Of a stretch of DNA of 29,165 nt, positions 1 to 23,032 are shown piece after piece (positions within the stretch are counted from its first letter, which is position 1; each line of letters opens with the position of its first letter). Made by a program: the position numbers and the translations under genes. This DNA is from a virus (Duplodnaviria; Heunggongvirae; Uroviricota; Caudoviricetes), in IMG/VR virus record IMGVR_UViG_2563366903_000025, positions 1 through 29,165 of that record; one strand, written 5' to 3'. The notes beneath the pieces are model-generated. The model searched no databases. It saw only the letters and a list, made by a program, of their open reading frames with translations, and was not told the DNA's origin.

Positions 1-756
1 CAGACGCTTCAGGTGCGCATCCACCTGACGGATTTCCGCTGCGGTGTTGTCGTAATGCTCTTCCTCCTCCACATCCAGCGTGCGCCCTTCCTCTGCGGCT
101 TTGGTCATGACCTCCTCAAGGGAGGCTGCCAGTGCTGCACGCTTGTTTTCAAAACTTTTAATCTGTTCGCCAATATTCATTATGGTCTTTTCCTTATGAA
201 AAACGGTTGTTGACTGTGCCGCAGCGCCGGCAGAAGATGCGATTTTCACCACCGGTTTCCGGTTGCCGGACGCGGCAGAAAACTGGCGGTCGTAAGATTT
301 AATGGTCCGGATGGTGCATTCCGCATTCGCGGGCACGGTGACGGCAGACACCTCCATCAGTTCCCAGCGCAGAAAATGCAGTCCGCCTCCGTCCAGAAAG
401 GTGTATTCATGGGGACGGAAGCCCACGGACAGCCCCCTGACCAGCCCGGTCTTAATGGCCGCCCAGGCCTCATCCAGCCGGGCAGCCAGTTGCGATGGCA
501 TATCCGGCACGGGCTTCGCCAGTGTTGCCGTGATTTCCAGCCCTTCGCTGACCCGGCGCACCGTACACTGCCCCACCGGGCGGGAATGGTCATGCTGCCA
601 GAGAAACGGGATCGCACTGCCAAACTCCGCGCCCTCCGGCTCCAGGATGTCACCATCCCGATCCGGAGAAGGCGTTGACGCAATCCCGGTGATCACCCGC
701 TCATCCTCACTGAAGGATTTCACCGTCAGCAGGGAGCAGGCCCGTTTAAGAGTCAC
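1..756 (-). CDS. HK97-family prohead protease; reading frame continues without a stop into a major-capsid-like N-terminus (partial, runs off window)
   Basis: Minus-strand frame not in the ORF track because it has no stop in the window. GTG at 756..754 is preceded by AGGAGG. My translation reads VTLKRACSLLTVKSFSEDERVITGIASTPSPDRDGDILEPEGAEF...WQHDHSRP...GLSVGF...VPANAEC, a prohead-protease pattern with His and Ser motifs. An in-frame ATG at 180..178 with an AAGGA RBS starts MNIGEQIKSFENKRAALAASLEEVMTKAAEEGRTLD, which looks like a capsid delta-domain coiled coil. Confidence 0.6.
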   Translation of the reverse strand, partial: MTLKRACSLLTVKSFSEDERVITGIASTPSPDRDGDILEPEGAEFGSAIPFLWQHDHSRPVGQCTVRRVSEGLEITATLAKPVPDMPSQLAARLDEAWAAIKTGLVRGLSVGFRPHEYTFLDGGGLHFLRWELMEVSAVTVPANAECTIRTIKSYDRQFSAASGNRKPVVKIASSAGAAAQSTTVFHKEKTIMNIGEQIKSFENKRAALAASLEEVMTKAAEEGRTLDVEEEEHYDNTAAEIRQVDAHLKRL

Positions 757-819
757 ATCAGCCTCCTGAAAATAAAAAAACCGCCGCAGCGGTCCATGAT
801 GGTTACAGGGTGAACAGGG

Positions 820-2481
820 TTATATGAAAAAAACCGCATATTCTTTCTTTTTCGGCTCCGGATTCAGGGACATCAGGGATACCGCATTGAACAGCGCCAT
901 CAGCGGGTCAATTTTCCCCCGCCCGCTGGCCTGTTTGGTAATAAGGATAGCGTTACCTTTAGGCTCCACCCGGGCATTGCCAACGCACCAGGCCATCAGT
1001 GGCTGACCACCATGCACCAGTACTCCCTCAGCCAGTTTGCGCTCGGTGGTTTTAATGGCACCGCCCAGCTTCCAGCCCTGGCTTATCCCCACCACACTCT
1101 CATCGGGGATCCCGGCTTCCGCCAGTGAATCCAGAATCTGCCCCACGCCTGACGGGTCAATACCGATATGGTCCAGTAACTCAGCCTCATGAATGCGACG
1201 CACATACTCCGCCACTTCCGCCGTGTCATCCCCGACCCGACGGACAATGGTCATATCCCCACAGGCAACAAAATCCTGAAAACGGGCTGCCTCACTTTTT
1301 CGTCTGGCCACCGCGGTTTCATGTGCCCAGGCATGGCCCCAGCCCAGCCATTCGCGGGTCTCCCGGTCACGCCCAATCACATACATCCCCAGCAGATCAT
1401 CCAGCCCTCCGCCGTCAATCCCCACCGTCACCACATCAGCACGCTGCAGAATATCGTCCAGACTGATGCGCCTGCCCTGCTGCTCCCAGAAATCCGCCCC
1501 CGCCCAGCGGTCAGAACGCAGGGCAAGACCAATTTCCACATTGGCGTGTTTTGACATGAAACCGCGAAAAGTCTCTTCACCGGCTTCCCGGGCTTTACGG
1601 TACTCCCGGTACAGAAACGCCTCATCCACCGAATAACCGAGATTCGGATTGACCATGGCGAGGTTTTCCATCAGCAGGTGCTCACCGCTCTCCACCATCT
1701 CCGGCGGATGCTCAAAAATCACCGGCAGAAAGTGCGGATCATGAATTTTGCCGTCACGCACATCCCGGGCGTACTGCAGTTTCTGCCTGAACACCCCGGC
1801 AGGCGGCTCATTCGACTGGGTGGTCGTATACACCACAAACCCTTCCGGGCGGGAGGCAAGGCCGCCTATGGCTTCACGTAACATGTCCTCCGCCTTGTAC
1901 TGTTTGCCAAACAGCCATAACTCATCAATCAGCGTACCCACGGACTTGATACCGGACACCGTATTCGGATCGGCTGCCACCACCTTCAGGGTGGTGTCCG
2001 TCACCCGGTGGGTGATGGTCCGGATATGCGTCTGTACCTGGCAGAGGTCATCCAGATCATCGTCGCGTCGTACCATATCCCGGGCAGGGTTGAAGGCGTT
2101 GGCTGCCACCTCCACGGTCGGGGCCAGAATGGTGTAGCCCGCCGCCTGCCGCCAGTTCAGTAACAGCGCCGTCATCATGATCCCGGCGGCCAGCGTGGAC
2201 TTGCTGTTTTTTTTAGGTATCAGAATGAACACTTCCTTGATATGGCGCACACCGGTCTGCGCATCGTAGGAGCCAAACAGGGCCGCCACCAGGTCAAACA
2301 CCCACTGTGCACAGGACTCCCCGAACGTCGGGCTGCCCGGTGCATCCACAATCCGCAGTTGTTTAAAAATCGCCAGGGCATGTGCGGCCTGCTCCGGGTA
2401 AATCGGAGCCGGAATAATCGACAGCCCCTTTTTCAGGCGTACTGCCCAGTCCGGGCAGGCCGTGCTCCACCCTGGTATCAT
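820..2481 (-). CDS. Terminase large subunit
   Basis: 553 aa ORF with a Walker A-like segment (LIPKKNSKST) and a C-terminal nuclease-like region (GIDPSG). Start overlaps the upstream small-subunit stop (ATGA). Confidence 0.88.
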   Translation of the reverse strand: MIPGWSTACPDWAVRLKKGLSIIPAPIYPEQAAHALAIFKQLRIVDAPGSPTFGESCAQWVFDLVAALFGSYDAQTGVRHIKEVFILIPKKNSKSTLAAGIMMTALLLNWRQAAGYTILAPTVEVAANAFNPARDMVRRDDDLDDLCQVQTHIRTITHRVTDTTLKVVAADPNTVSGIKSVGTLIDELWLFGKQYKAEDMLREAIGGLASRPEGFVVYTTTQSNEPPAGVFRQKLQYARDVRDGKIHDPHFLPVIFEHPPEMVESGEHLLMENLAMVNPNLGYSVDEAFLYREYRKAREAGEETFRGFMSKHANVEIGLALRSDRWAGADFWEQQGRRISLDDILQRADVVTVGIDGGGLDDLLGMYVIGRDRETREWLGWGHAWAHETAVARRKSEAARFQDFVACGDMTIVRRVGDDTAEVAEYVRRIHEAELLDHIGIDPSGVGQILDSLAEAGIPDESVVGISQGWKLGGAIKTTERKLAEGVLVHGGQPLMAWCVGNARVEPKGNAILITKQASGRGKIDPLMALFNAVSLMSLNPEPKKKEYAVFFI

Positions 2482-3041
2482 CCGTTGCCCTCATTATCGT
2501 TATTCACCACCAGGCGGGGTGGTGGTGGCACCGCAAAACGGTTAGCCGCTTTTTTCGCCGCGTCACCTTTTGCCGATTTTTTACCGGCATCCCCTTTTTT
2601 ATGGTGCGTGAACTGTGCCAGTCGCCAGGCCGCATCCAGTGCCAGTTTCGGGTCAATGCTCAGGTTTTCCACCAGGATCCTCCCCATCGCTTTTACCGGA
2701 TCAGGAAGACCGTCTTCCATGTAATCAATACCTGGTAGTGGTGTGAGACTTTGCCGGTCATCAGGCGGCAGTGAAACCGGGGTGTTCTTTTCCGCCGGAG
2801 GGGCTTCCTGATGGCACTCCTCCGTCTGCGTCTTTTTCTGCCGGTAAACAGGAACCTCATCCACCTCCACCGTCTCGCCCTGCTTACGGGCAATAAACGC
2901 GAGCACCTCCGGATCTTTTGCCAGCTGCGAGCCTTTAACCCTGGCGGTCTTCGCCGAATAACCGGCGGCAATGGCTGACGCTGTTTTGTTTTTCCCGGAC
3001 ATGAGCGCCAGCGCAAATTTTCGTTTTTGCGTTGTCAGCAC
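2478..3041 (-). CDS. Terminase small subunit (GTG start at 3041; alternative ATG at 3002)
   Basis: 187 aa. N-terminal HTH-like segment KRKFALALMSGKNKTASAIAAGYSAKTA is typical of P27-type small terminase subunits. Sits immediately upstream of and coupled to the large subunit. AGGAGG precedes the GTG. Confidence 0.7.
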   Translation of the reverse strand: MLTTQKRKFALALMSGKNKTASAIAAGYSAKTARVKGSQLAKDPEVLAFIARKQGETVEVDEVPVYRQKKTQTEECHQEAPPAEKNTPVSLPPDDRQSLTPLPGIDYMEDGLPDPVKAMGRILVENLSIDPKLALDAAWRLAQFTHHKKGDAGKKSAKGDAAKKAANRFAVPPPPRLVVNNDNEGNG

Positions 3042-3330
3042 AGCCTCCTCCCGGGTCCAGAACGCACTCAGCCGGGTATGGTTCAGCCCATTTTTCCCGG
3101 CGCCTCATGCCGCAAATGTTAACTGCTGCCTGGTTAACATTTGCTGAAAAAGCCTGTTAACATTTTTTCCATGCAACAAACTGAATAATAAAGATAAAAA
3201 CCGCAAAAATGCCCGGGCAGCCAGTTAACATGTTAACTGCCCTGAAACGGGAATTTTTTCTCTGCGTGAGACGGGGCGCGGTGTCCGGGACGATCGTTTT
3301 TATCGCCGGATGATCCCCCCCCAGGGCGGG

Positions 3331-3696
3331 TCACAGTCCGATGATATCGTCTGCCCTGCCACGACCTCCGGACACCTCCGGCAGCGTCGGGTCCGGCATA
3401 CCACCCGCCGCTTCACGAGCAGACTTTTGTCGATGGCATTCGGTACAGAGCGTCCAGAGATTCGTCTCCTCATTACCACCACCGAACTGAAGTGCAATTC
3501 GGTGATCAAGTTCACTGTCACAGAGGTCAACCACACGACCACAGATACAGCACTGCCCGGCGTCCCTGAGCCAGATATGACGCTTGAGGGAAACACGTGC
3601 ACTGCCACTGACACGACGCTGTTCCCCCTTCAGAATATTCACCCGTCGGGTATTCAGTGTTTTGATTCTGCTCTGGAGTGTACGAAGCTCAGCCAT
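3331..3696 (-). CDS. HNH endonuclease (packaging-associated)
   Basis: 121 aa with CxxC...H-N-H motif (CCICGRVVDLCDSELDHRIALQFGGGNEETNLWTLCTECHRQK), directly upstream of the terminase genes as is common in HK97/P27-like packaging modules. Confidence 0.85.
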   Translation of the reverse strand: MAELRTLQSRIKTLNTRRVNILKGEQRRVSGSARVSLKRHIWLRDAGQCCICGRVVDLCDSELDHRIALQFGGGNEETNLWTLCTECHRQKSAREAAGGMPDPTLPEVSGGRGRADDIIGL

Positions 3697-3737
3697 GTAA
3701 AATCCCCGTCATATGACAATCAGTAAAGGAAATAAAT

Positions 3738-3938
3738 ATGTCATCGAAAAACCGGACCCGCAGAACCACAACCCGCAATATCCGTTTCCCCAATCACATA
3801 ATTGAACAGATCAACATCGCCCTTGAGCATAAAGGATCCGGTAACTTTTCAGCGTGGGTTATTGAAGCCTGCAGGAGAAGGCTGGCAACAGATGCAACGC
3901 ATCTGCGCCCGGCCAGCATGACAAATAACGAGAAATGA
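3738..3938 (+). CDS. Small putative ribbon-helix-helix-like DNA-binding protein (opposite strand to the late operon)
   Basis: 66 aa ORF with an AAGGA RBS 7 nt upstream of the ATG. The segment NIRFPNHIIEQINIALEHKGSGNFSAWVIEACRRRL resembles a strand-helix-helix fold. Family not verified. Confidence 0.4.
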   Translation: MSSKNRTRRTTTRNIRFPNHIIEQINIALEHKGSGNFSAWVIEACRRRLATDATHLRPASMTNNEK

Positions 3939-4128
3939 ACGTTCGGTTTCTTCCACCATCGCACCGGACAGGCGACTATGAGGGGACAACGCCGCGCTCC
4001 GTTAACGCGGTAAACCCCGGTGTGCATCGTTTTTGATTATCCCCGCACACTCGCGCAGAGGAGTCTCCCTGTCGGGCTGCGGTCTCTGTTAATGCAGGAA
4101 TACGGCGACGATACGGCGCATGGCTATG

Positions 4129-4677
4129 TCAGGCTGAAATGCCTTTATCAAATCCGGGTAACGCAATCTGCCCCTGCTGCTCCAGCCTGTCCAGCCTTGC
4201 CAGCAACTGAGGCTTCTTCACCCTGCCCCAGCGATTGAGCAAACGACCTGACATACTGGCAACATCTTTCTCTTTCATGTACTCCAGCATTACAGCGTTG
4301 CGTTCAGCTTCATAACTTTCACTGAACTTACGGAGTTCAGCGGACATCCAGTTAAAGGCATTAATATAGGCTTCTTTAACAGCATCAGCTTTTGCCCCGT
4401 TAAATCCCATAACCAGCATAACGAAGCCGCTAAAGTCCATGCGGTAGTAAATCTGCTTCTTGTCGAAAATCCCTAACTCATTGATTTTTTCGGCAACGCA
4501 AAAATGCGCTCTCCGGAAATCTTCAGAGCAATGGCAATTTTTCAGCGCCCTCAATACGTCCGCATGACGCTTACCAAACGCCTTAGCGATCTGAAAAGAG
4601 TCTGTTATTGGTTCGCCATCTGCCGCTGTTACCAGTTGGCGAAAATCAATACCGTCAACAATCGTCGGATAGTTCAT
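4129..4677 (-). CDS. rha: Rha-family phage regulatory protein
   Basis: 182 aa. N-terminus contains the Rha hallmark (QIAKAFGKRHADVLRAL). Confidence 0.75.
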   Translation of the reverse strand: MNYPTIVDGIDFRQLVTAADGEPITDSFQIAKAFGKRHADVLRALKNCHCSEDFRRAHFCVAEKINELGIFDKKQIYYRMDFSGFVMLVMGFNGAKADAVKEAYINAFNWMSAELRKFSESYEAERNAVMLEYMKEKDVASMSGRLLNRWGRVKKPQLLARLDRLEQQGQIALPGFDKGISA

Positions 4678-4686
4678 CGCGTTTTA

Positions 4687-4778
4687 CCTTTCAGAAAATT
4701 GAGCCTGTCTCACAGAAAAGCCGCCCCGAGATGGTCGCCACCATATACGGCAGTTCTCAGGCTCAACTTTCTGAAAGG
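4687..4778. promoter_or_regulatory. 21-bp inverted repeat (20 of 21 complementary) flanking about 50 bp, immediately upstream of the rha start
   Basis: cctttcagaaaattgagcctg (4687-4707) and caggctcaactttctgaaagg (4758-4778) are near-perfect reverse complements. The left arm overlaps the rha RBS region. A nested CCCCGAG/CTCGGGG repeat lies at 4724-4730 and 4779-4785. Confidence 0.5.
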
Positions 4779-4825
4779 CTCGGGGATGTGATATGCGCGT
4801 GAGATGCGCGGTGAAATTCAGATAT

Positions 4826-4850
4826 GAAAAAGCCAGCGATTAAGCTGGCT
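4826..4850 (-). terminator. Intrinsic terminator-like hairpin just downstream of Rz
   Basis: Minus-strand RNA: AGCCAGC-uuaauc-GCUGGCU followed by UUUUUC (plus-strand A-run at 4826-4830). Confidence 0.45.
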
Positions 4851-4853
4851 CTG

Positions 4854-5321
4854 TTAATTCAGGCACTGAGTGCGGATATAGTCCTGTGCCCCTTCCAGCT
4901 GCTTCTGCATCAGCATCAACCGCTCTCTGAGGGTGAAATAATCCCGTTCAGCGGTGTCTGCCAGTCGGGGGCCGGTTGCATTATCCACGCCGGAGGTGCC
5001 GGTGGCTTCACGCACGGTACCGGAGCAGGTGGCGTTGATCCGCAGGCGCTTACGACCAGCGGCAACATCAGCACGCAGAGTTTCATTTTCAGCTCTCGCA
5101 TCAGCTAATTCCCTCGAGTATTTTGCATCGAGCGCAGCAACATCACGCTGGCGCACCTGCATGTCAGTAATGGTTGCGTTTGCCAGCTCCAGCTCTCTGG
5201 CTTTTTTATCGCGCTGCGCTTTGTAGGTGATGGCGTTATCGCGGTAATGGTTTGCTGCCAGCCACAGCGCACCGCAGCCAACCGCCAGGACAATAATCAC
5301 CACACACAGAACACGGTTCAT
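4854..5321 (-). CDS. Rz: Rz i-spanin
   Basis: 155 aa with N-terminal TM segment and coiled-coil body ([20 protein letters not shown]...[15 protein letters not shown]), closely resembling phage 21/lambda Rz as I recall it. Start overlaps the methyltransferase stop (ATGA). Confidence 0.88.
4916..5086 (-). CDS. Rz1: Rz1 o-spanin lipoprotein (embedded in Rz in the +1 frame)
   Basis: From ATG 5086: [17 protein letters not shown]..., a signal peptide with lipobox (VSAC) followed by a proline-rich body. Embedded position within Rz is diagnostic. Confidence 0.8.
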
Positions 5322-6262
5322 ATCACTACCATTTCACTGTTTTCTTTTTTCAGGCGTTTTTTTGCAACAGCGAAATACCGGTCATCCTTTTCTATTCCGG
5401 TAAACCATCTCCCCGTCCGGATACACGCAACACCTGTTGAACCACTCCCCATAGTAAAATCCAGGACCATATCGCCGGGGTTACTGTACGTCTGAATCAG
5501 CTCTTCCAGTAAGGGCACCGGCTTCTGAGTGGGGTGAAAACGCACTTTTTCCCGTGAGTACTCCAGCACATTTGAACGGTATTTTCTCCCGGCGGGGAGA
5601 TTAAACACCTTTTGACCGTAGGCATGATTAAGCTGACACATCGCTTCATATGTCATGAACCCCGGCATCCGGTCGATGCCAAAGCGTTCGATTAATTCGT
5701 TGTACGTTGCCCGTGAGCAGAGGGAAAACTGCGTGGTGTTAACCCTGAAAAAGTGCTCAGCCCGACAGTGTCCAAGCACCTTGTTAACCTCCTTGCCTGA
5801 CCGGTAACCGGTGAAGGAAAGAATGCTTCTGACGTATTCCCTCAGCGGGTGCTTTTTCTCACTATCATATTTTTTGCTGAACACAACAATGTCCTCGAAC
5901 AGCGATACCGGCGCCTTTGGGGCTACCAGCGGATTGGCAAAATGATTTTTTTTCCACACCATGCGATACGAAAACGGCAGATTGTTCAGCGCCTGAGTAA
6001 TCATCGTGCTGGTGTACGGCTCCTGACCGAACAGAATCAGTGTCCCGTTTACCCTCAGCAGACGCTCACACTGTAAGAATATCTCCACCGGGGGTAATGC
6101 TTCATCCCATGATGCTTTCCCTGAATCCCATGAAGGCAGGTTTAGCCCCTTAATGGTTCCATAGGGTGGATCAACGAGGATAAGGTCAATGCTTCCTTCC
6201 GGTAACGTTGGCATAATCTCCAGACAGTCACCATGATACAGAGAACTGTTCATCTCTTTCAC
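5318..6262 (-). CDS. DNA methyltransferase (beta-class N6-adenine or N4-cytosine; orphan, no restriction partner seen)
   Basis: 314 aa. N-terminal DPPY motif (LILVDPPYG) and C-terminal AdoMet-binding motif ([15 protein letters not shown] with upstream HPTQKP). Motif order IV...I suggests the beta class. No adjacent endonuclease-like ORF. Confidence 0.8.
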
Positions 6263-6390
6263 TCCAGCAGACCGGCCGAAGCCAACGCCATCCAGGCGAT
6301 GGAAAGAAAAAGAGCAACCAGCATGAGTGAAAATGAAACGCCGACAATCACACAGAGGACCTTTGCCGACGTTATGAGTTTGTCTGACAT
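6259..6390 (-). CDS. Small single-TM membrane peptide (43 aa)
   Basis: From ATG 6390 with an AAGGGG RBS: [43 protein letters not shown]. Stop overlaps the methyltransferase start (ATGA). Confidence 0.35.
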   Translation of the reverse strand: MSDKLITSAKVLCVIVGVSFSLMLVALFLSIAWMALASAGLLE

Positions 6391-6395
6391 CTTTA

Positions 6396-6488
6396 CCCCT
6401 TGATAGCAGTAATTAACTGGGCAACCACCCATAAAAACGGAATCAGCCAGACCAGCAAAAATTTCCAGTCCATTTTTATCATCTTCAT
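6396..6488 (-). CDS. Small hydrophobic peptide (30 aa)
   Basis: My translation from ATG 6488, which overlaps the antirepressor stop (ATGA): MKMIKMDWKFLLVWLIPFLWVVAQLITAIKG. Below the ORF-track length cutoff. Confidence 0.3.
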
Positions 6489-7180
6489 GCTGCGGTAGCT
6501 CTCCATGCAGCAAGCAGACCAGCAATCCACTCAACACCTTTTGGGGTGAATTTAACCTGCGTAAAAGCATGACCATTGCCCGCCTCGCCCGTTTTCACGC
6601 TAAACCGCCCCGCATCCAGGTGATGCGAGTAAGGCGTCATTTTTCCAGCGAGGCGATACATTATTCCGTTCTCCAACAAAAACAGCCGGAAATCGGTTTC
6701 TTTGATACCGAGTAACTTAGCAACTTCCCGGAATCCCATCAGACCAGATGCTTCAACATAGTTATCAACAAATTCGGCCTTCGGCGCTGCTATTGCCAGT
6801 TGATTTTCCAGCACTGCTTTCTGTTCAGCCAGTTTTGCCGCAAATCGCAACGCCTCAGGTAAAGTCCGGGGGATCTGAATACCATGCATCGCTTTGAGTC
6901 TTGCCAGCACAGAACGACGAACGGCCTTTGACTCCCTCATGCCAACGAGCATCATCTGGTCAAAATCCAGATCATAGTATGCCGTTCTTGTCTGGTTATT
7001 GTTTAACCGGAATTTTTTTCCGGTTCCATCAAGCTCTAGCTCATCCTCAATTTTTGCAAGAAACTTACGCGGTTCATGAGGGACTTCTCCGGCTTCTGCC
7101 CGGGCTGGATTAATAATGTTATTCAGAAAATCCAGACTACTCATGGATATTTCATGATCGACAGAAATCATCTCTTTCAT
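6485..7180 (-). CDS. Antirepressor-like protein with KilA-C-type C-terminal domain
   Basis: 231 aa. C-terminal segment LPEALRFAAKLAEQKAVLENQLAIAAPKAEFVDNYVEASG... is paralogous to the C-terminus of the 13088..13816 gene ([40 protein letters not shown]). Confidence 0.65.
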   Translation of the reverse strand: MKEMISVDHEISMSSLDFLNNIINPARAEAGEVPHEPRKFLAKIEDELELDGTGKKFRLNNNQTRTAYYDLDFDQMMLVGMRESKAVRRSVLARLKAMHGIQIPRTLPEALRFAAKLAEQKAVLENQLAIAAPKAEFVDNYVEASGLMGFREVAKLLGIKETDFRLFLLENGIMYRLAGKMTPYSHHLDAGRFSVKTGEAGNGHAFTQVKFTPKGVEWIAGLLAAWRATAA

Positions 7181-7453
7181 GGTTGATTCCTTTTAGTGAT
7201 GAACCCTGCGCACAGGAATAACCAGCCCAAAGAGGGTTAACCAGACCACTGCCGGTTATCCACCAGGGCTCATCCTGAAAGGTTCTTTGGTTTATTTACG
7301 CTTGTGCGAAGCGCAGAAATGACAAAGGCACCATTACGGTGCCTCTGCGTGAAATAATGTTCCTGACTTTATTCACTTACATTTTGCCAGCTCGCAGGAT
7401 TTCGTGTTATCCGCCCGCGTTGGCCAACGTCATTTTTCAGCAAAATATTCTGC

Positions 7454-7987
7454 TTATCTGTCGATTCCCCAGCACGCCAGCGCGCTCTCCTGGTCTCGCC
7501 GGGATACCTGACCGTAACAGTTATTTGAGCGAATACGGCAGTCCCTGCCACCGTCCTTAATCCACCAGCGAATCGCCTCACATGCTCCCCTGCGATCACC
7601 AGCATTAATTCGTTTATAAAACGTCGACGGGAAACACTTACCGGGGCCAATGTTGTACGGACAGAATGACGCGATCCCCGCTTTCTGGGGTTCGGTCAGT
7701 GGCACCCGGATGTTTTTCTCCACCCATGCCAGCGCCTTATCACGCTCAATGGCATTAACCCGGTCGCATTTTTCCTTCGACAGCTTCATGCCAGGAATAA
7801 CAGGCTTACCATCCACCCGGGTGGCTCCACGGCAGATGGTCCAGATACCCGCACCATCACGGTATGCTGTGGTGTGGTTGCCTTCTTTTTCATCCAGAAA
7901 CTGGTCGAGAATGTCAGGCGCAGAAGCGCCAGCGGCAATCAGCGCCAGAACGGCAGCCGATAAACCATAGCGGAGTTTTCTGCTCAC
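7454..7987 (-). CDS. R: SAR endolysin (phage 21 R-like lysozyme)
   Basis: 177 aa with an N-terminal signal-anchor-release-like hydrophobic segment (LSAAVLALIAAGASAP), followed by a lysozyme-like body. Sits immediately downstream of the holin. Confidence 0.85.
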   Translation of the reverse strand: MSRKLRYGLSAAVLALIAAGASAPDILDQFLDEKEGNHTTAYRDGAGIWTICRGATRVDGKPVIPGMKLSKEKCDRVNAIERDKALAWVEKNIRVPLTEPQKAGIASFCPYNIGPGKCFPSTFYKRINAGDRRGACEAIRWWIKDGGRDCRIRSNNCYGQVSRRDQESALACWGIDR

Positions 7988-7991
7988 CAGT

Positions 7992-8207
7992 TCATTCTCC
8001 CCGCGCCGCCTTACGCCGGTCCTCTCTGATTTTGAAATACAGGTTAGTCAGATATGTCAGCAGCCCAAACAGCAGACTCCCCAGCACGCCTATTGCCGCC
8101 CACTGAGACGGGGAAACCCTGTCCAGCAACTGCAGGAACCAGTAGCCCGTTCCCACCGCTGACGTGGTGTATGACACACCTGTTGTGATTTTTTCCATCT
8201 GGTACAT
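7992..8207 (-). CDS. S: Holin (S21-type pinholin with dual-start motif)
   Basis: 71 aa: [10 protein letters not shown]...[51 protein letters not shown]. Two TM segments and a basic C-terminus, near-identical in pattern to phage 21 S as I recall it. Met1 and Met4 are candidate antiholin and holin starts. Confidence 0.85.
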
Positions 8208-8282
8208 ACCCCGTCTCCCGTACTCGGAAGCTCACAACAACAAAAGGGCCACCAGCTCTTTACTGATGACCCTGACTCACCG

Positions 8283-8573
8283 TTACAGCATTGTGCCCGA
8301 TTCTGGCTGTGTGTCTGTCATATCCGTCACCGGTGGCTCCGGCTGAATATCACCATTTTCCGTGGTGACATCTTCCGCCTGTGGTTCCGGAAGCAGTTCC
8401 GGGGATGGTTCCGGCTGTGCACCAAGCAATTCATCCAGAATTGAATCCACTTCTGCATCAAGACGCGCCTCAAGGTTCTGCCGAAGTTGCTGTTTCAGTG
8501 CGCTCCGGACTTCTTCAGAGCGCAGGACTTCCTTCACTGCCTCAGCAGTGACCAGCGATTTTATTTCTGACAT
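8283..8573 (-). CDS. Hypothetical acidic protein (96 aa)
   Basis: From ATG 8573: MSEIKSLVTAEAVKEVLRSEEVRSALKQQL..., very acidic and Pro/Glu-rich C-terminus. In the late operon between nanS-like and S. No recognised family. Confidence 0.4.
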   Translation of the reverse strand: MSEIKSLVTAEAVKEVLRSEEVRSALKQQLRQNLEARLDAEVDSILDELLGAQPEPSPELLPEPQAEDVTTENGDIQPEPPVTDMTDTQPESGTML

Positions 8574-8598
8574 AGGATTTTCTCGTTGAAAGGGGTTA

Positions 8599-8793
8599 TT
8601 AAGAAGGTTGTTCCGGAATGAGTGGGGCTTCTGTTTTTGCTCCGGCTGACTGACTGGCGCTGATTTTCTCTGCGGCCCTTTTATCAATCTGCCTGCGCCA
8701 GAAATCGCGCACTGCCCTGTACCCACCCGAAAGAAGATACAGCACACAGACCGCCGTACAGAAGTACAGCATCACCTGATGAACAAATGTCAT
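8599..8793 (-). CDS. Hypothetical small membrane protein (64 aa)
   Basis: One N-terminal hydrophobic segment (VMLYFCTAVCVLYLLSGGY) followed by a basic tail. Confidence 0.4.
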   Translation of the reverse strand: MTFVHQVMLYFCTAVCVLYLLSGGYRAVRDFWRRQIDKRAAEKISASQSAGAKTEAPLIPEQPS

Positions 8794-8890
8794 AGTTTCT
8801 TACCGTTATGGTTGACAATGAGAACTGTTTTCATTTAAAAAACCGATATACGAAAGCATCTTTTCTTTACATTCTCCATTGGGATTACCT

Positions 8891-8927
8891 CCGCCAGCTT
8901 CCGTTCCTGCCGCTGGCGGTTTTTTTT
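8891..8927 (+). terminator. Plus-strand intrinsic terminator abutting the 3' end of the nanS-like gene (antisense orientation relative to late genes)
   Basis: CCGCCAGC-13 nt loop-GCTGGCGG followed by T8 on the plus strand. The minus-strand RNA has no U-tract after the hairpin. Confidence 0.5.
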
Positions 8928-8932
8928 GCCGG

Positions 8933-10915
8933 TTATGATGATGCCCGGCTTTCGTTAACTTTGACTGTGACCGTATCAAGCAGTACCGGATACGTCGCTT
9001 TTGCCCCCGTGATATCTGTCAGCGTCAGCGTATCTGCTGTAAAGCCATCATTTGTCCACATCACCAGGTCAAACGCAGACTGCTCTGCATCATCAATCAC
9101 CGGCACCACTTTTTCGCTGTTATTTCCCGCAAAGCGGAAAACAACTGTATGCCAGTTATGGTCAAATGCCCCAAATGTGCCCAGTTGCGCATTCGACTCC
9201 CCCTTGTGGTACATCAGATTCAGATTTGATGCATCCGTCTGAAGGAAGAAGGACGCCAGCATGCTGTTTGCTGTCGCGCCTGACGCCCACTGCGACACCG
9301 GCCAGTACAGACCAAAGACAAACTGACCGTTAACCAGTTCGACACCCTCCGGGATCTTAAACCGCACGGCAATTTCACCTCCCTTACTGAGAAGATTTTT
9401 TGCCTCCTCCACCGCAACAGTACGGAACATCTTCCAGGAGGTCAGTTTACCCGGCTGTTTTTCCAGTCGCAGCGCCTTCCTGCCACTGTCATCCGTCACA
9501 GTGCCTTTACCACCGGACGCATTCCACTGCTGCTCTGTCCATACACCACTGCCACTGTTCGCATCATATCCGGCCACCATTCTTGTTACGGCTTCAGTAT
9601 GACCGCCTGCAGAAGTACCTGCACCCTGCTGTTGCGTCGGACCCGCAGAGCCAGACTGTGCATCCCCCGTGGAGGCTGGCGTGGTCGCCAGCGGTGCAGA
9701 CTGCCCGCTCAGGAACGGCAGCAAACGCCCGGCTCGCACCAGTATCTCTCCTGCCAGCCGATCTGAAACAATGCCTCTTCGCGCCCAGGAGCTGAAGTGC
9801 GTTTTACGATCGGCTGTCGTCCAGTTACCATTACTGCGTGACGCGGCACCATAGTATCCCGCCGTGATAATGTCCGGATCTTCTGACGGCTCGTTTGTCG
9901 GCACATTCGCACCATGCTCATCCGTCATCAACGGCACAAAGTGAATATTCTGCGCCGCCTTGCCTTTATAGCCTCCGTAAACCGCCTCATACTGCACTGC
10001 ATACTTCGCCTTCCAGTCGTACGTGGTGTCACCGCAAATCCACGGGACGCCGGACGTTGTCCCGCCAATACACTGGTCTGCAATATCTGCCAGGTCTGCA
10101 CGGTATTTATTTACCATGGCAAGAAAAAGTGCATTGTGCTCTGCATGTCTCCCCGAACTGACATCTTTTTCCCCCTGCATCCAGATCACCGACAACAGCA
10201 CGTTTTTCGGATTTTTCTTCAGGGCTGCACGCGTTCTGCTGACCAGGTCACGATACAACGGTTTATCCACCCCCCACAGGGAAGAGCCCGCTGTCGCACC
10301 CGACGCCTCATTAAACGCGCCCTCTGCTCCCGCAGTAAATCCCGAATCGCCACGTCCACACGGGACAAGAAGGATCCCCGCACGGGCAGGCATAAACGGC
10401 AGCAGTTTTTTGGCCACATGCAGGGCATGCCCCACACAGCCATACTGCCCTTTATTGAGGTCTGCTTTCGGGTGATTCAGATTACTCACGTCCTGCACAT
10501 CATGCAGACAATGGTCTGCAGGAATAATGTCGTTATATGCACAGGCCGCACCGCCCGGTGTCACCGTGCTGCGACGCGCCAGTTGCTTAATACGCGGGTC
10601 AGGACGATCATACGTATCCGGCAGCGGCAGCCCCTCGCCAAAAGACATCGAGTTGGACTGCCCGGCCAGCGCAATGACAAAGTAATATTCCGGTTCGCTG
10701 GTGGTGCTGATAACAGCGCCACCATCACCCGACGGTTGCACCACCACCGGTGTGGTGACATCACCTTCCGCCGCAATGGCCTGCATCAGGGTATAGGGCG
10801 TGATGGCCACCGGACTGCCAAATGGCTGCCACCCCTCCTTCAGTTTTTGAGTCAGTCGCTCCGCAAGGTCTGACGGCGACGCCGCCCTGACCACGTCATA
10901 GTGTTTAAATGTCAT
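8933..10915 (-). CDS. nanS: Prophage sialate O-acetylesterase (NanS-p-like; SGNH/SASA esterase)
   Basis: 660 aa. N-terminus MTFKHYDVVRAASPSDLAERL (DUF1737-like), a GQSN block (FVIALAGQSNSMSFGEG) typical of SGNH/SASA esterases, and a long C-terminal extension. Positioned downstream of Q, as NanS-p genes are in Stx and lambdoid prophages. Confidence 0.8.
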   Translation of the reverse strand: MTFKHYDVVRAASPSDLAERLTQKLKEGWQPFGSPVAITPYTLMQAIAAEGDVTTPVVVQPSGDGGAVISTTSEPEYYFVIALAGQSNSMSFGEGLPLPDTYDRPDPRIKQLARRSTVTPGGAACAYNDIIPADHCLHDVQDVSNLNHPKADLNKGQYGCVGHALHVAKKLLPFMPARAGILLVPCGRGDSGFTAGAEGAFNEASGATAGSSLWGVDKPLYRDLVSRTRAALKKNPKNVLLSVIWMQGEKDVSSGRHAEHNALFLAMVNKYRADLADIADQCIGGTTSGVPWICGDTTYDWKAKYAVQYEAVYGGYKGKAAQNIHFVPLMTDEHGANVPTNEPSEDPDIITAGYYGAASRSNGNWTTADRKTHFSSWARRGIVSDRLAGEILVRAGRLLPFLSGQSAPLATTPASTGDAQSGSAGPTQQQGAGTSAGGHTEAVTRMVAGYDANSGSGVWTEQQWNASGGKGTVTDDSGRKALRLEKQPGKLTSWKMFRTVAVEEAKNLLSKGGEIAVRFKIPEGVELVNGQFVFGLYWPVSQWASGATANSMLASFFLQTDASNLNLMYHKGESNAQLGTFGAFDHNWHTVVFRFAGNNSEKVVPVIDDAEQSAFDLVMWTNDGFTADTLTLTDITGAKATYPVLLDTVTVKVNESRASS

Positions 10916-11109
10916 GAATCCTCCCGGTCGGGATAATGTTGTGAGTCAGATGAGGGAACGGGCTGAAGTCCGGAAGTTACAGGACAATGGCAGGAGGAAG
11001 ACTACAGCCCGCAATACGAAAAAGGCCGCGCTATTGCGCAGAGTGATTACTGTCGGATATTATTCGCCAGCTGAAATATTACTTCACGTTTTGTTGTTTA
11101 TTCCTTGCC

Positions 11110-11138
11110 GCCCGCGTCTCCCAGCGCGGGCTTTTTTT
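11110..11138 (+). terminator. Plus-strand intrinsic terminator in the Q-nanS intergenic region
   Basis: GCCCGCG-tctcccag-CGCGGGC followed by T7. Confidence 0.5.
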
Positions 11139-11150
11139 GTCCATAAGAAA

Positions 11151-11168
11151 GCCCCTCCGGAGAGGGGC
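11151..11168 (-). terminator. Minus-strand terminator-like hairpin, convergent with the previous terminator
   Basis: GCCCCTC-cgga-GAGGGGC. Minus-strand RNA is followed by UUUCUUAU. Confidence 0.35.
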
Positions 11169-11469
11169 TGGAGAGTGGCGCTATGTGCCATTGCATGGTG
11201 CCGGGTGCCTCCCGGTGAGTTCAGTATCAGCACCTGAACCCGCACAGAAAGGATAAGGGTCGGTGACAAAACACCAGTTGCTGATTGCCCCTCCGCACAG
11301 GGGGATTCACCATGCCAGTTTCTTTTAACAAACTCCCCGCAAACCAGACAACAGTCAACCGCCTGAATTGTGAGGTATTTAAAAATTTCAACGGGTAACT
11401 GATACCCTGCTAATCGCCTGATGCTTTCTTTTTCAGCAACGGGAAAGCAACAACCACCACACCCACCAG

Positions 11470-11496
11470 CCGCCCATTTACCACAAATAAAAAAGC
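11470..11496 (-). terminator. Intrinsic terminator after the 65-aa gene
   Basis: Minus RNA: GCCUUC-cgcagu-GAAGGC followed by UUUUUUAUUU. Confidence 0.5.
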
Positions 11497-11498
11497 CT

Positions 11499-11696
11499 TC
11501 ACTGCGGAAGGCGTCTGTAACAACCGAACTGATAGTCTGCCAGACCCGCCATAACCAGCTGGGTCAGTATTAACTGGCAGCGTTCGCGTGAAAGGTAAGT
11601 ATTCTGCGCAATCTCCCCGACTGTCGCCGGTTCGGTGGCACTTAATTCATTAAACACCACTCTGGCGGTTTCTGTCATATCCTGCTGTTTTAGCAT
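11499..11696 (-). CDS. Hypothetical small protein (65 aa from ATG 11696)
   Basis: MLKQQDMTETARVVFNELSATEPATVGEIAQNTYLSRERCQLILTQLVMAGLADYQFGCYRRLPQ, a possible small winged-helix-like protein. First gene after tR' in the late transcript. Confidence 0.4.
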   Translation of the reverse strand: MLKQQDMTETARVVFNELSATEPATVGEIAQNTYLSRERCQLILTQLVMAGLADYQFGCYRRLPQ

Positions 11697-11816
11697 GTCT
11701 TTTTCCCTTTTCCGGTTAACGTGACACACCAATAACTCTTGTCGAAAAAGCCAGCAAGCTGAAAGACCGGTATTCACCACCACCAGCACGTTTACTGTAC
11801 TGATGCGATTTCAGTC

Positions 11817-11840
11817 ATAAAAAACCCGCCAGGCGGCGGG
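11817..11840 (-). terminator. tR'-like terminator downstream of Q (end of the short pR' leader transcript)
   Basis: CCCGCC-gccu-GGCGGG followed by UUUUUU on the minus strand, about 60 bp downstream of the Q stop, matching lambda pR'/6S/tR' organisation. Confidence 0.55.
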
Positions 11841-11900
11841 TTTAAGTTGTGTGGCGTAGTAACCACTCTTAACATACTGACATACTTTTTGCGGACCGCG

Positions 11901-12293
11901 CTAATCATTTTTTACTTTTTTGGGCAGCCAGTCGTCCATCTCCAGCCTTACACCCAGCATCGACAGACATCCGTCAATAAATCCTTCAGCAATCTGCATC
12001 TCAATTCGTATTGCCTTTTCGCTCTTCTTTCTTGTTCTGGCAATCTGCCTTTTTGATATGCGCAGCAGATAATGAGCTACCAGCAGCGAATACTCGTCCG
12101 GTTTTTTCTTCTTCAGGCGCGTAAGGCAGTTTTCGATGATAAGGCCGTCATCATCGCTGCAGGCCGGGCGAGGTTTAGCGGTGGATGGTAAAAGGCCTTT
12201 AAATCCAGCAGCTATCGGAGAATAGTCCACCCCGGTGTTACCACTTGCCGCCCATGCCCCCCAGCGTTCAAGAACCTGCTGAATATCACGCAT
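11901..12293 (-). CDS. Q: Late antiterminator Q (933W/21-type Q family)
   Basis: From ATG 12293: [35 protein letters not shown]...LKKKKPDEYSLLVAHYL...RLEMD, matching the Q933W-type pattern as recalled. Overlaps the ninH 3' end. Confidence 0.8.
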   Translation of the reverse strand: MRDIQQVLERWGAWAASGNTGVDYSPIAAGFKGLLPSTAKPRPACSDDDGLIIENCLTRLKKKKPDEYSLLVAHYLLRISKRQIARTRKKSEKAIRIEMQIAEGFIDGCLSMLGVRLEMDDWLPKKVKND

Positions 12294-12486
12294 CAGAGTC
12301 TTTACCCTTATCCCATCCACGATGGACCATAAGGACACCGTTGACGACGGCGTGCCGTTTGCCTTCTTTATCGCCAATATATTTTCTGACCGTGTTGCGA
12401 CTACAGTTCAGTATTCTGGCTACCTCGGTCTGATTTTCATATGCCTCAACGAGCATGTCAGGAATGGTTTTTACTGTGAACGTCAT
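12286..12486 (-). CDS. ninH: NinH
   Basis: 66 aa [58 protein letters not shown], near-identical to lambda NinH as recalled. Confidence 0.85.
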
Positions 12487-13088
12487 GCGGCCTCACTTCT
12501 GCTGTTTCGCAGGTCTTTGAGTTTCTGTTGGTACTCTGCCTTGATGGCCCTGCACTCTTCGACAGTCCAGCGATGGCGGTTATGGTTTGATTCGATTTCA
12601 TCTACTGCTTCCTGCCCGATGCGGCTAATCAGTTCGACGCGATACGGAACGAGATTTCCGCTTTTGTGCTGGTTGCACACCACGCATTGCTTGTGAATAT
12701 TGCGTTCATCAAATCGGAGTTGAGGTGCCGCAGCAGTTGTCCGGTAATGTCCGGCATCCCACTGAGCAGACGTGAGCGTTCCGCACGAGATACATGGTAA
12801 GTCGCGGTCTCTTTCTCTGATGAAGGCGTTTACGGCTTGTTGGGCTTGTTTAATCCAGTAACTGCGGGGCTTTAAGGCGAGTTTTCGAATCTTCAGTTTA
12901 TCTTTCTGTTTCTGCTCCTCTCGTCGTCGTTTCTTCTCTGCTGCTTTTTCCGCTTTTTCGCGTTCTTTACTTCGTCGTTCGAGTGCTAATTGAGTTCCGT
13001 GTTCCGGGCAGCACCACCACTGATTTGAGAATGCCGGGTGAAACCATTCCTTGCATATTTTGCATTTCCTTCGCGCTGGTTTAGCCAT
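12483..13088 (-). CDS. ninG: NinG (Rap) recombination protein
   Basis: 201 aa, near-identical to lambda NinG over most of its length ([61 protein letters not shown]...). Confidence 0.9.
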
Positions 13089-22830: not shown

Positions 22831-22891
22831 TATGCATACCAATAACGCTTCACTCGAGGCGTTTTCGTTATGTATAAATAAGGAGCACACC

Positions 22892-23032
22892 ATGCAATAT
22901 GCCATTGCAGGGTGGCCTGTTGCTGGCTGCCCTTCCGAATCTTTACTTGAACGAATCACCCGCAAATTACGTGACGGATGGAAACGACTCATCGACGTAC
23001 TTAATCAGCCAGGAGTTCCCAAAAATGGATAA
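22892..23032 (+). CDS. cIII: CIII (inhibitor of FtsH-mediated CII degradation)
   Basis: 46 aa MQYAIAGWPVAGCPSESLLERITRKLRDGWKRLIDVLNQPGVPKNG, matching lambda CIII as recalled but shorter at the C-terminus. AGGAG RBS. Confidence 0.85.
   Translation: MQYAIAGWPVAGCPSESLLERITRKLRDGWKRLIDVLNQPGVPKNG

Follow-up and report, generated by a model that had tools for sequence, protein, structure and literature searches.

The window examined in this study, a 29,165-nucleotide (nt) stretch of DNA from a virus of the Caudoviricetes (IMG/VR record IMGVR_UViG_2563366903_000025, positions 1 to 29,165), carries on its minus strand nanS-p, an open reading frame (ORF) of 660 codons for a putative sialate O-acetylesterase. 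A first-pass annotation of the sequence had placed this gene in the interval between the antiterminator gene Q and the lysis genes, and the placement was borne out: as shown in Table 1, Q lies 5′ of nanS-p, and the genes for a holin and a lysozyme lie 3′. However, the same annotation had listed only the esterase and a 65-amino-acid (aa) ORF (orf65) for this region. The Q-to-holin interval was found to hold, in addition, two small ORFs (DUF1378 and DUF826), a small RNA (sRNA) gene of the STnc100 family, two antisense elements, and the remnant of a DUF3927 gene; orf65 itself lies just outside the piece (8933-11498) to which it had been assigned. Likewise, the ∼600 bp upstream of nanS-p, which had been treated as effectively empty, contain a convergent sRNA pair and a deletion scar.

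The product of nanS-p is, by its sequence, a full three-domain NanS-p sialate O-acetylesterase with intact catalytic blocks. It comprises a DUF1737 domain (∼aa 1-55), a NanS-like esterase domain (aa 74-392), and a lectin-like C-terminal domain (aa 448-660). Pfam analysis of the 660-aa ORF identified DUF1737 (PF08410, aa 3-50, 57.5 bits), SASA (PF03629, aa 157-276, 38.6 bits against a cut-off of 24.8), and DUF6645 (PF20350, aa 509-617, 111 bits); neither the esterase nor the small ORFs had any model match in NCBIfam. When compared with solved structures, the central domain (aa 74-392) matched Escherichia coli NanS/YjhS (PDB 3PT5; E=1e-111, 55% identity), and the C-terminal domain (aa 448-654) matched the crystallised C-terminal domain of NanS-p (PDB 6YP6; E=7e-47). 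In NanS, the SGNH-type blocks are 17-GQSNA-21, 120-RGGSAF-125, 178-MQGEFD-183, and R-x-SHFS-303 (PMC10792757). Blocks I, II, III, and V of nanS-p (GQSNS, RGDSGF, MQGEKD, and RKTHFS, respectively) align with these, and the QGE of block III corresponds to Q247-G-E249. Among 119 homologues, Ser87, Gly189, and His373 were constant, and Q247-G-E249 was invariant or near-invariant; position 190, which is Asp here, takes G, A, D, or N. Mutation of the SGNH catalytic residues had been named at first pass as the finding that would undo the assignment; given the constancy of Ser87, Gly189, and His373 and the variability of position 190, these residues are regarded as unmutated, with Ser87, His373, and QGE all intact. 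The esterase would thus use a Ser87-His373 dyad with a SASA-type QGE oxyanion arrangement. Chromosomal NanS (YjhS, 3PT5) likewise has a Ser-His dyad without the block V Asp and carries the SASA QGE motif, but it is a single-domain protein of ∼326 aa that belongs to the nan regulon and has neither DUF1737 nor the lectin-like domain. In the phi24B protein, Y510, Y515, Y540, and F611 have been proposed for sugar binding (PMC10462455); their counterparts here are F532, Y537, F557, and F625, aromatic in 4 of 4 cases. The Pfam domains, the 3PT5 and 6YP6 matches, and the catalytic blocks therefore agree in identifying a NanS-p-type sialate O-acetylesterase, as had been proposed.

Table 1. Features of the nanS-p locus, from Q to the lysis genes, with positions in the window.
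Feature	Coordinates	Strand	Basis
nanS-p coding sequence, 660 aa + stop	8933..10915	minus	ORF listing, ATG start
Ser87 codon, predicted catalytic nucleophile, block I GQSNS	10655..10657	minus	aligns with Ser19 of NanS
His373 codon, predicted catalytic base, block V RKTHFS	9797..9799	minus	aligns with His of R-x-SHFS 303 in 3PT5
Remnant of DUF3927 gene 3′ end, last 17 codons (VVVVAFPLLKKKASGD, then stop)	11410..11460	minus	comparison with JE86-ST05 (L005)
STnc100-family sRNA gene, late-operon orientation	11139..11344	minus	Rfam RF02076, full-length model match 1-206/206
Convergent antisense sRNA gene, short form, ∼69 nt predicted	11070..11138	plus	identity to E2348/69 PP6 locus
Predicted antisense-sRNA promoter: -35 TTGCGC, 18-nt spacer, -10 TATTAT	11034..11063	plus	scan; predicted
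Esr41-like antisense element, convergent with nanS-p	8848..8927	plus	Rfam Esr41 RF02676, 23 bits, below gathering score
First sense-strand terminator hairpin after Q, 9-bp stem + U6	11816..11841	minus	-15.7 kcal/mol, z=-4.5
Q antiterminator, Q21/Q933W family	11901..12377 (longest ORF; probable ATG 12293)	minus	PF06530, E=5e-52
orf65 (65-aa ORF), phrog_331, weak winged-helix/TrmB-like match	11499..11696	minus	ORF listing and profile matches
Downstream terminator of orf65	11490-11512	minus	
DUF1378 small ORF, 64 aa	8599..8793	minus	PF07125, E=4.5e-35
DUF826 small ORF, 96 aa	8283..8573	minus	PF05696, E=6e-28
Sense-strand terminator-like hairpin after DUF826	8245-8273	minus	-19.3 kcal/mol
P21-type class II holin	7992..8207	minus	PF04971
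Lysozyme	7454..7987	minus	PF00959

The region between orf65 and the STnc100 gene was then compared among related loci. In the Shiga toxin (Stx) phage Stx2a_EH2201 (L002), it contains a methylase gene, tRNA genes, and stx2AB; in JNEC-KY176 (L004), a methylase gene, tRNA genes, and a second STnc100 copy, without stx; in JE86-ST05 (L005), a methylase gene, tRNA genes, TerB, and DUF3927; and in the window it amounts to only ∼85 bp. Because the content of this slot varies between strains and nanS-p is kept beside it, nanS-p is a conserved neighbour rather than a variable insert. Window positions 8200-11476 were 99.7% identical to positions 1201-4476 of JE86-ST05, and window positions 11459-11843 matched positions 6634-7018 of JE86-ST05. 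These two matches are 2.16 kb apart in JE86-ST05, so the window lacks the intervening piece, on which lie a DNA methylase gene, TerB, three tRNA genes, and the 5′ part of DUF3927. The joint falls at ∼11458-11466, within an ACACCC..CCA microhomology, and the sequence at the scar points to a 2.16-kb deletion or an illegitimate-recombination joint at this microhomology. The toxin-less state would then derive from a relative with methylase, tRNAs, TerB, and DUF3927 in the slot. Moreover, the scar junction was present in 201 of 5426 complete E. coli genomes and also in phage PhiR5_1, which indicates a circulating arrangement and not a private lesion.

The absence of toxin and tRNA genes upstream of nanS-p, also reported at first pass, held up in a dedicated search for remnants. 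The probe was a real methylase-tRNA-stx2AB module (Stx2a_EH2201, positions 3663-6500). In 10916-11900, no stx or tRNA remnants were found by ARAGORN, Rfam, blastn (word size 7), or tblastx, which gave chance matches only; the sole tblastx matches of the module in the window fell on an unrelated methylase paralogue at 5318-6262. Neither stxA nor stxB was found between Q and nanS-p by blastn, tblastx, or ORF listing, and no tRNA gene was found in the whole window by ARAGORN or Rfam. Very probably, in our view, this locus represents a toxin-less version of the late-regulatory "moron slot" known from lambdoid prophages of E. coli, with a gene for NanS-p. The slot offers a clean worked example in which the same flanks (Q and orf65 at one end; STnc100, the antisense sRNA, and nanS-p at the other) enclose stx2AB, TerB plus DUF3927, tRNAs plus methylase, or a 17-codon scar alone.

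Immediately 5′ of nanS-p, the STnc100 gene was detected with 143.2 bits (gathering score 47; E=6e-32), and its intrinsic terminator corresponds to the minus-strand hairpin at 11150-11169 (-17.4 kcal/mol). An STnc100 element lies 5′ of nanS-p in all related loci compared (L001-L006 and L008). In Stx2 phages, STnc100 has been located 75 nt downstream of stx2B (PMC12370729), and it is held to be a relative of PasD, an sRNA of enteropathogenic E. coli (EPEC) (bioRxiv 10.64898/2026.05.13.724894). In the stx-free slot of JNEC-KY176, two tandem STnc100 copies (L004 4138-4350 and 4545-4753) separate the tRNA genes from nanS-p.

Convergent with STnc100, and abutting its 3′ end with a plus-strand terminator hairpin at 11110-11138 (-16.9 kcal/mol), is an antisense element that belongs to no Rfam family. 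Plus-strand positions 10916-11145 were 97% identical over 230 nt to the PP6 locus of EPEC strain E2348/69, and the bodies of the two sRNAs differ at a single terminator-loop base. The PP6 locus encodes an Hfq-associated sRNA recovered by RIL-seq (in which interacting RNAs are ligated and sequenced), designated "E2348C_1409.E2348C_1408.IGR", which has the homologues EcOnc08/21/42 in enterohaemorrhagic E. coli and the target motif GGCAAGG (PMC8550237 supplements). The window element carries the seed CCUUGCC at 11103-11109, and CCTTGCC at these positions complements the target motif. Judged by identity to a RIL-seq sRNA with the seed included, plus-strand 11070-11138 is an EcOnc08/21/42-type antisense sRNA gene that is presumably expressed. 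A possible long form would start near 10957 and may be antisense to the 5′ untranslated region (UTR) of nanS-p. The 126 nt just 5′ of the nanS-p ATG (10916-11041) were 91.5% identical to a 933W-type phage, and the coding sequences are far more diverged; the identity of this stretch despite such divergence points to a function kept in the 5′ UTR or in an antisense promoter.

The predicted promoter of the antisense sRNA has a -35 block that is conserved, and a spacing that is identical, in the sequence preceding AsxR of the 933W-type locus L006, where STnc100 (3089-3294, plus strand) and AsxR (3296-3348, minus strand) precede the nanS-p start at 3501. "Convergent sRNA pairs" between a moron and a conserved phage ORF were described by Tree et al. 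(PMC4104026). An identity of the window element with AsxR (RF02703) or AgvB (RF02702) was rejected, as a 301-nt search gave no Rfam match to either at E<=10; the control, AsxR of L006, gave 88 bits. The window antisense sRNA and AsxR of 933W-type phages thus have slot, orientation, and promoter block in common, but a match to the family models, with their conserved 3′ body of ∼42 nt, is absent from the former. In Stx2a_EH2201, the position that the antisense sRNA has in the window, between STnc100 and nanS-p, is taken by a 107-aa antisense ORF annotated "iraM" (L002 3088-3411, plus strand). A 107-aa plus-strand ORF of the window itself (10914-11237) and a RefSeq pseudo-CDS (coding sequence) over the STnc100 region in L001 were both judged spurious, as they cross two terminators and the sRNA genes.

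On the other side of nanS-p, plus-strand positions 8848-8927 are probably, though with weak support, an antisense sRNA gene of uncertain family. A perfect -35 hexamer (TTGACA, 8812-8817) precedes the element, and its terminator at 8891-8927 (8-bp GC stem with T8; -15.3 kcal/mol) comes to within 5 nt of the nanS-p stop codon. An Esr41 identity was not supported by the 23-bit match (gathering score 102; E=0.35). PasA of E2348/69 lies at the corresponding place and is also antisense; a PasA identity was set aside, as the two sequences barely align. The first-pass annotation had described convergent terminators flanking the esterase gene. The three hairpins lie where it had put them and fold well, and terminator-like sites are enriched in 7000-13000 (15, compared with 6.3 +/- 2.8 in shuffles); however, they form no terminator pair for the esterase gene, because the U-tracts of 8891-8927 and 11110-11138 lie on the strand opposite nanS-p. 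Rather, these "convergent terminators" belong to the sRNA genes and the Esr41-like element, whose 3′ ends they form.

Three sense-strand intrinsic terminators (11841-11816, 11512-11490, and 11169-11150) stand between Q and nanS-p, which fits Q-dependent late expression. The hairpin at 11816-11841 is the positional homologue of the one following Q in the 933W-type L006 (77% identity over 57 nt), and it is here that homology shared with loci of a different Q family begins. Q itself, of the family designated Q21/Q933W (bioRxiv 10.1101/651190), was 49% identical to the Q protein from a 933W-type phage. A strict consensus scan of the coding strand from Q to the nanS-p ATG found no sigma-70 promoter. 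Homologues of nanS-p are induced along with the late genes (PMC10462455; PMC8065619), and, from the anatomy of the locus and these published homologues, it is a reasonable inference that nanS-p expression is Q-dependent and linked to induction, as the earlier annotation had it. Since the N-terminus of NanS-p is not signal peptide-like and its gene lies in the late operon 5′ of holin and lysozyme, the protein would need Q read-through for its synthesis and lysis for its release. Under this scheme, Q would let RNA polymerase pass the three terminators into nanS-p, phage lysis would release the enzyme, and extracellular NanS-p would strip 7/8/9-O-acetyl groups from mucin sialic acids for use by E. 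coli.

The start of the late transcript was considered by comparison with other loci. In late antitermination cassettes of the Q21/Q933W type, the Q gene precedes pR′, a sigma-dependent pause element, a Q-binding element, and a terminator. In JE86-ST05, which is annotated with a lambda-type Q, the stop codon of Q is overlapped by a good promoter (TTGCAA, 17 nt, TATATT), which lies ∼35 nt ahead of the shared hairpin. In L006, TTTACG, 16 nt, TATCAT fits the published RNase E site position of +173 in StxS, and no hexamers matching this promoter were present in the equivalent stretch of the window (77% over 57 nt). Past the Q stop codon and ahead of the first hairpin of the window, a tandem 8-bp direct repeat, AGTATGTC/AGTATGTT, was observed on the minus strand at 11871-11886. 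By analogy with the two directly repeated 8-bp Q21 subsites, it is a possible candidate Q-binding element; it was not conserved in L006. The terminator tR′ may be either 11841-11816 or 11512-11490, the latter by analogy with the 258-nt StxS leader, in which case orf65 may lie within a constitutively transcribed pR′ leader. The orf65 module was found to be conserved 3′ of two Q families, one matching PF06530 and the other annotated in RefSeq as "bacteriophage antitermination protein Q" (L002, L004, and L005). With its two flanking terminators (11499-11841, minus strand), it forms a module of 92-94% identity after two unrelated Q families.

Several findings weigh against the view of nanS-p as a Q-driven gene for a freely released sialate esterase. 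The protein is only 55-59% identical overall to the Stx-phage NanS-p proteins, alleles of which are characterised, and its block II reads RGDSGF instead of RGGSAF. The late promoter pR′ and a Q-binding site were not located by consensus scans of the coding strand near Q. A relaxed scan picked out one weak promoter-like candidate on the sense strand (GTGAAG, 17 nt, AATAAT) at 11087-11059; it sits 3′ of the sRNA terminators and might give Q-independent basal expression. Finally, gp84 of phi24B, a NanS-p, was reported from cryo-electron microscopy and proteomics to be a processed, capsid-decorating protein (bioRxiv 10.64898/2026.04.10.717836), which suggests that the window protein may belong to the virion rather than act as a free enzyme. 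A rival reading, in which a weak promoter of its own drives nanS-p in the lysogen without Q and the flanking sRNAs tune its expression, appears unlikely to us. The site at 11087-11059 does lie downstream of the STnc100 terminator, and the homologous EPEC antisense RNA, annotated as 182 nt, comes within 41 nt of the esterase start, just as the long form of the window antisense sRNA would overlap the nanS-p 5′ UTR. Yet the -35 of this site matches at only 3 of 6 positions and failed the stricter scan, a terminator-like hairpin (11041-11026) follows it, and the published homologues rise strongly on induction. It is also extremely unlikely that nanS-p is a decaying remnant in a defective prophage, with no functional enzyme. 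Although the adjoining slot has undergone deletion, and the prophage is a mosaic for which no single genome was found that matches the whole window, the 660-codon ORF is intact with all catalytic blocks kept, as is the ORF in 7 of 7 nanS-p alleles compared. Pairwise dN/dS against the six other alleles was 0.05-0.29, and an identical protein is encoded in the record of Escherichia phage PhiR12_1, a lambda-like phage whose record names E. coli K-12 MG1655 as host.

A different question is what the enzyme serves once it is made. The label "cargo", applied at first pass, is questionable, given that nanS-p is a conserved ORF beside the moron slot (PMC4104026) and given the phi24B preprint. The protein could be mainly a virion component whose DUF1737 docks onto capsid hexons as in phi24B gp84, with the esterase and lectin domains serving the particle (mucus or sialoglycan adherence, host-surface access) instead of feeding the lysogen; this we regard as rather unlikely, and it could coexist with the nutritional reading of NanS-p. 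In phi24B, the DUF1737 of gp84 binds hexon centres as a hexamer, and a Tyr42 loop is the anchor (bioRxiv 10.64898/2026.04.10.717836). DUF1737 is present in the window protein (57.5 bits) and, for some pairs of alleles, is the part that has diverged least: compared with NanS-p of Stx2a_EH2201, it is 100% identical, the esterase domain 71%, and the C-terminal domain 47%, and by this alignment nanS-p is a domain mosaic. A fixed late gene beside a variable moron slot also accords with a virion role. However, the window DUF1737 is of a different subtype, its anchor loop is 3 residues shorter (ITP-YTLM, compared with STAGYGAEFI in phi24B), and Tyr42 has no aligned counterpart, Tyr41 being adjacent. 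Moreover, the 100% identical protein occurs with two unrelated head modules. It is accompanied by a lambda gpE/gpD head (PF03864) in PhiR12_1 and strain 2015C-3121, and by a fusion of an S78 protease with an HK97-type capsid protein (PF04586 + PF05065) in the window and its closest relatives, which argues against tight co-adaptation to one capsid lattice. Furthermore, PhiR12_1 and the closest relatives of the window have long-tail siphovirus-type gene sets, unlike the T=9 podovirus phi24B. As far as sequence comparison goes, the two head modules and the short loop weaken a strict capsid-docking role for this allele. A broader proposal, that the shortened-loop DUF1737 docks the esterase on capsids other than the T=9 capsid of phi24B, so that NanS-p would be a general, module-independent capsid-displayed sialoglycan esterase/lectin of E. 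coli siphophages and not lysogenic-conversion cargo, with the flanking sRNAs (one antisense to the nanS-p 5′ UTR) setting its level in the lysogen, seems unlikely. Less probable still is a natural substrate in an O-acetylated bacterial surface polysaccharide (the O-antigen or a K1-type polysialic acid capsule), which would help infection or progeny release. A review raises such a substrate for NanS-p (PMC8065619), and the lectin-like domain is only 47% identical between alleles, as expected of a specificity module; but the esterase domain shares 55% identity with chromosomal NanS, the best substrate of which is 9-O-acetyl Neu5Ac, several NanS-p alleles de-O-acetylate mucin sialic acids (PMC8065619), and evidence for a polysaccharide substrate was not found in the literature examined. 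Sialate O-acetylesterase activity tied to phage induction remains the preferred reading of nanS-p, and the locus provides a convenient natural background for the question of a nutritional conversion factor versus a virion-displayed enzyme.

The head and packaging genes of the window (1-3696, minus strand) comprise an HNH endonuclease, the small and large terminases, and the S78 protease-HK97-type capsid fusion (first 252 codons); this module is unrelated to the lambda-type heads that accompany identical nanS-p elsewhere.

When set against described systems, the locus is of an already known kind, and its allele has already been sequenced. The protein cluster of nanS-p at 90% identity contains 1,498 member sequences. 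The identical protein bears no annotation beyond "hypothetical" or "SASA family carbohydrate esterase". NanS-p of Stx phages (933W z1466/L0105; phi24B vb_24B_21, that is, gp84) has the same DUF1737-SASA-DUF6645 order and catalytic blocks, occupies the same place between the Q/moron slot and DUF1378, DUF826, holin, and lysozyme, and has the same STnc100 directly upstream. The window protein differs from the 933W-type protein in sequence (55% identity overall; DUF1737 62%, esterase 71%, C-terminal domain 47%), in an anchor loop shorter by 3 residues, in two longer linkers, and in length (660 versus 645 aa); its gene has no stx upstream, and its antisense partner sRNA is not AsxR. In Stx2_EH2201 (LC567829), Q, orf65, and their surroundings were 92% identical to the window, the DUF1737 of NanS-p was identical, and the order Q, orf65, ..., STnc100, nanS-p was the same; but ∼2.8 kb (methylase, three tRNAs, and stx2AB) stand where the window has ∼85 bp, and the rest of nanS-p was only ∼76% identical at the DNA level.

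Loci without stx were also compared. The non-Stx prophage NanS-p alleles of EDL933 and O104:H4 are of the same kind, with nanS-p in a lambdoid prophage that lacks stx. According to the work of Saile et al. (2016, 2018), as cited in PMC10462455 and PMC8065619, such alleles are active and confer growth on Neu5,9Ac2. The same two papers credit NanS-p enzymes of Stx prophages, too, with activity and with support of growth on this substrate. In E2348/69, prophages PP2 and PP6 (PasD2, esterase, PasA; E2348C_1409.E2348C_1408.IGR) show the same arrangement of a sense PasD/STnc100-type and/or convergent antisense sRNA 5′ of the esterase and an antisense sRNA 3′ of it. The PP6 antisense sRNA is essentially identical to that of the window, but the PP6 slot holds tRNAs and ISEc13, and the downstream element of the window is nearer to Esr41 than to PasA of E2348/69, neither match being significant. 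As a discovery, the locus therefore carries little weight, in that NanS-p esterases of toxin-less prophages, their activity, and the adjoining sRNA pairs have already been published, and the scarred arrangement is itself common among E. coli (201 of 5426 complete genomes).

Two further features were noted elsewhere in the window. An N6/N4 DNA methylase gene (PF01555; 5318-6262, minus strand) lies in the lysis region, with Rz (4854-5321) on one side and an antirepressor on the other, and is distantly paralogous to the methylase found after orf65 in Stx2a phages. A lambda cIII thermoregulator element (RF01804) was identified on the plus strand at 22879-22937, with 88.5 bits.

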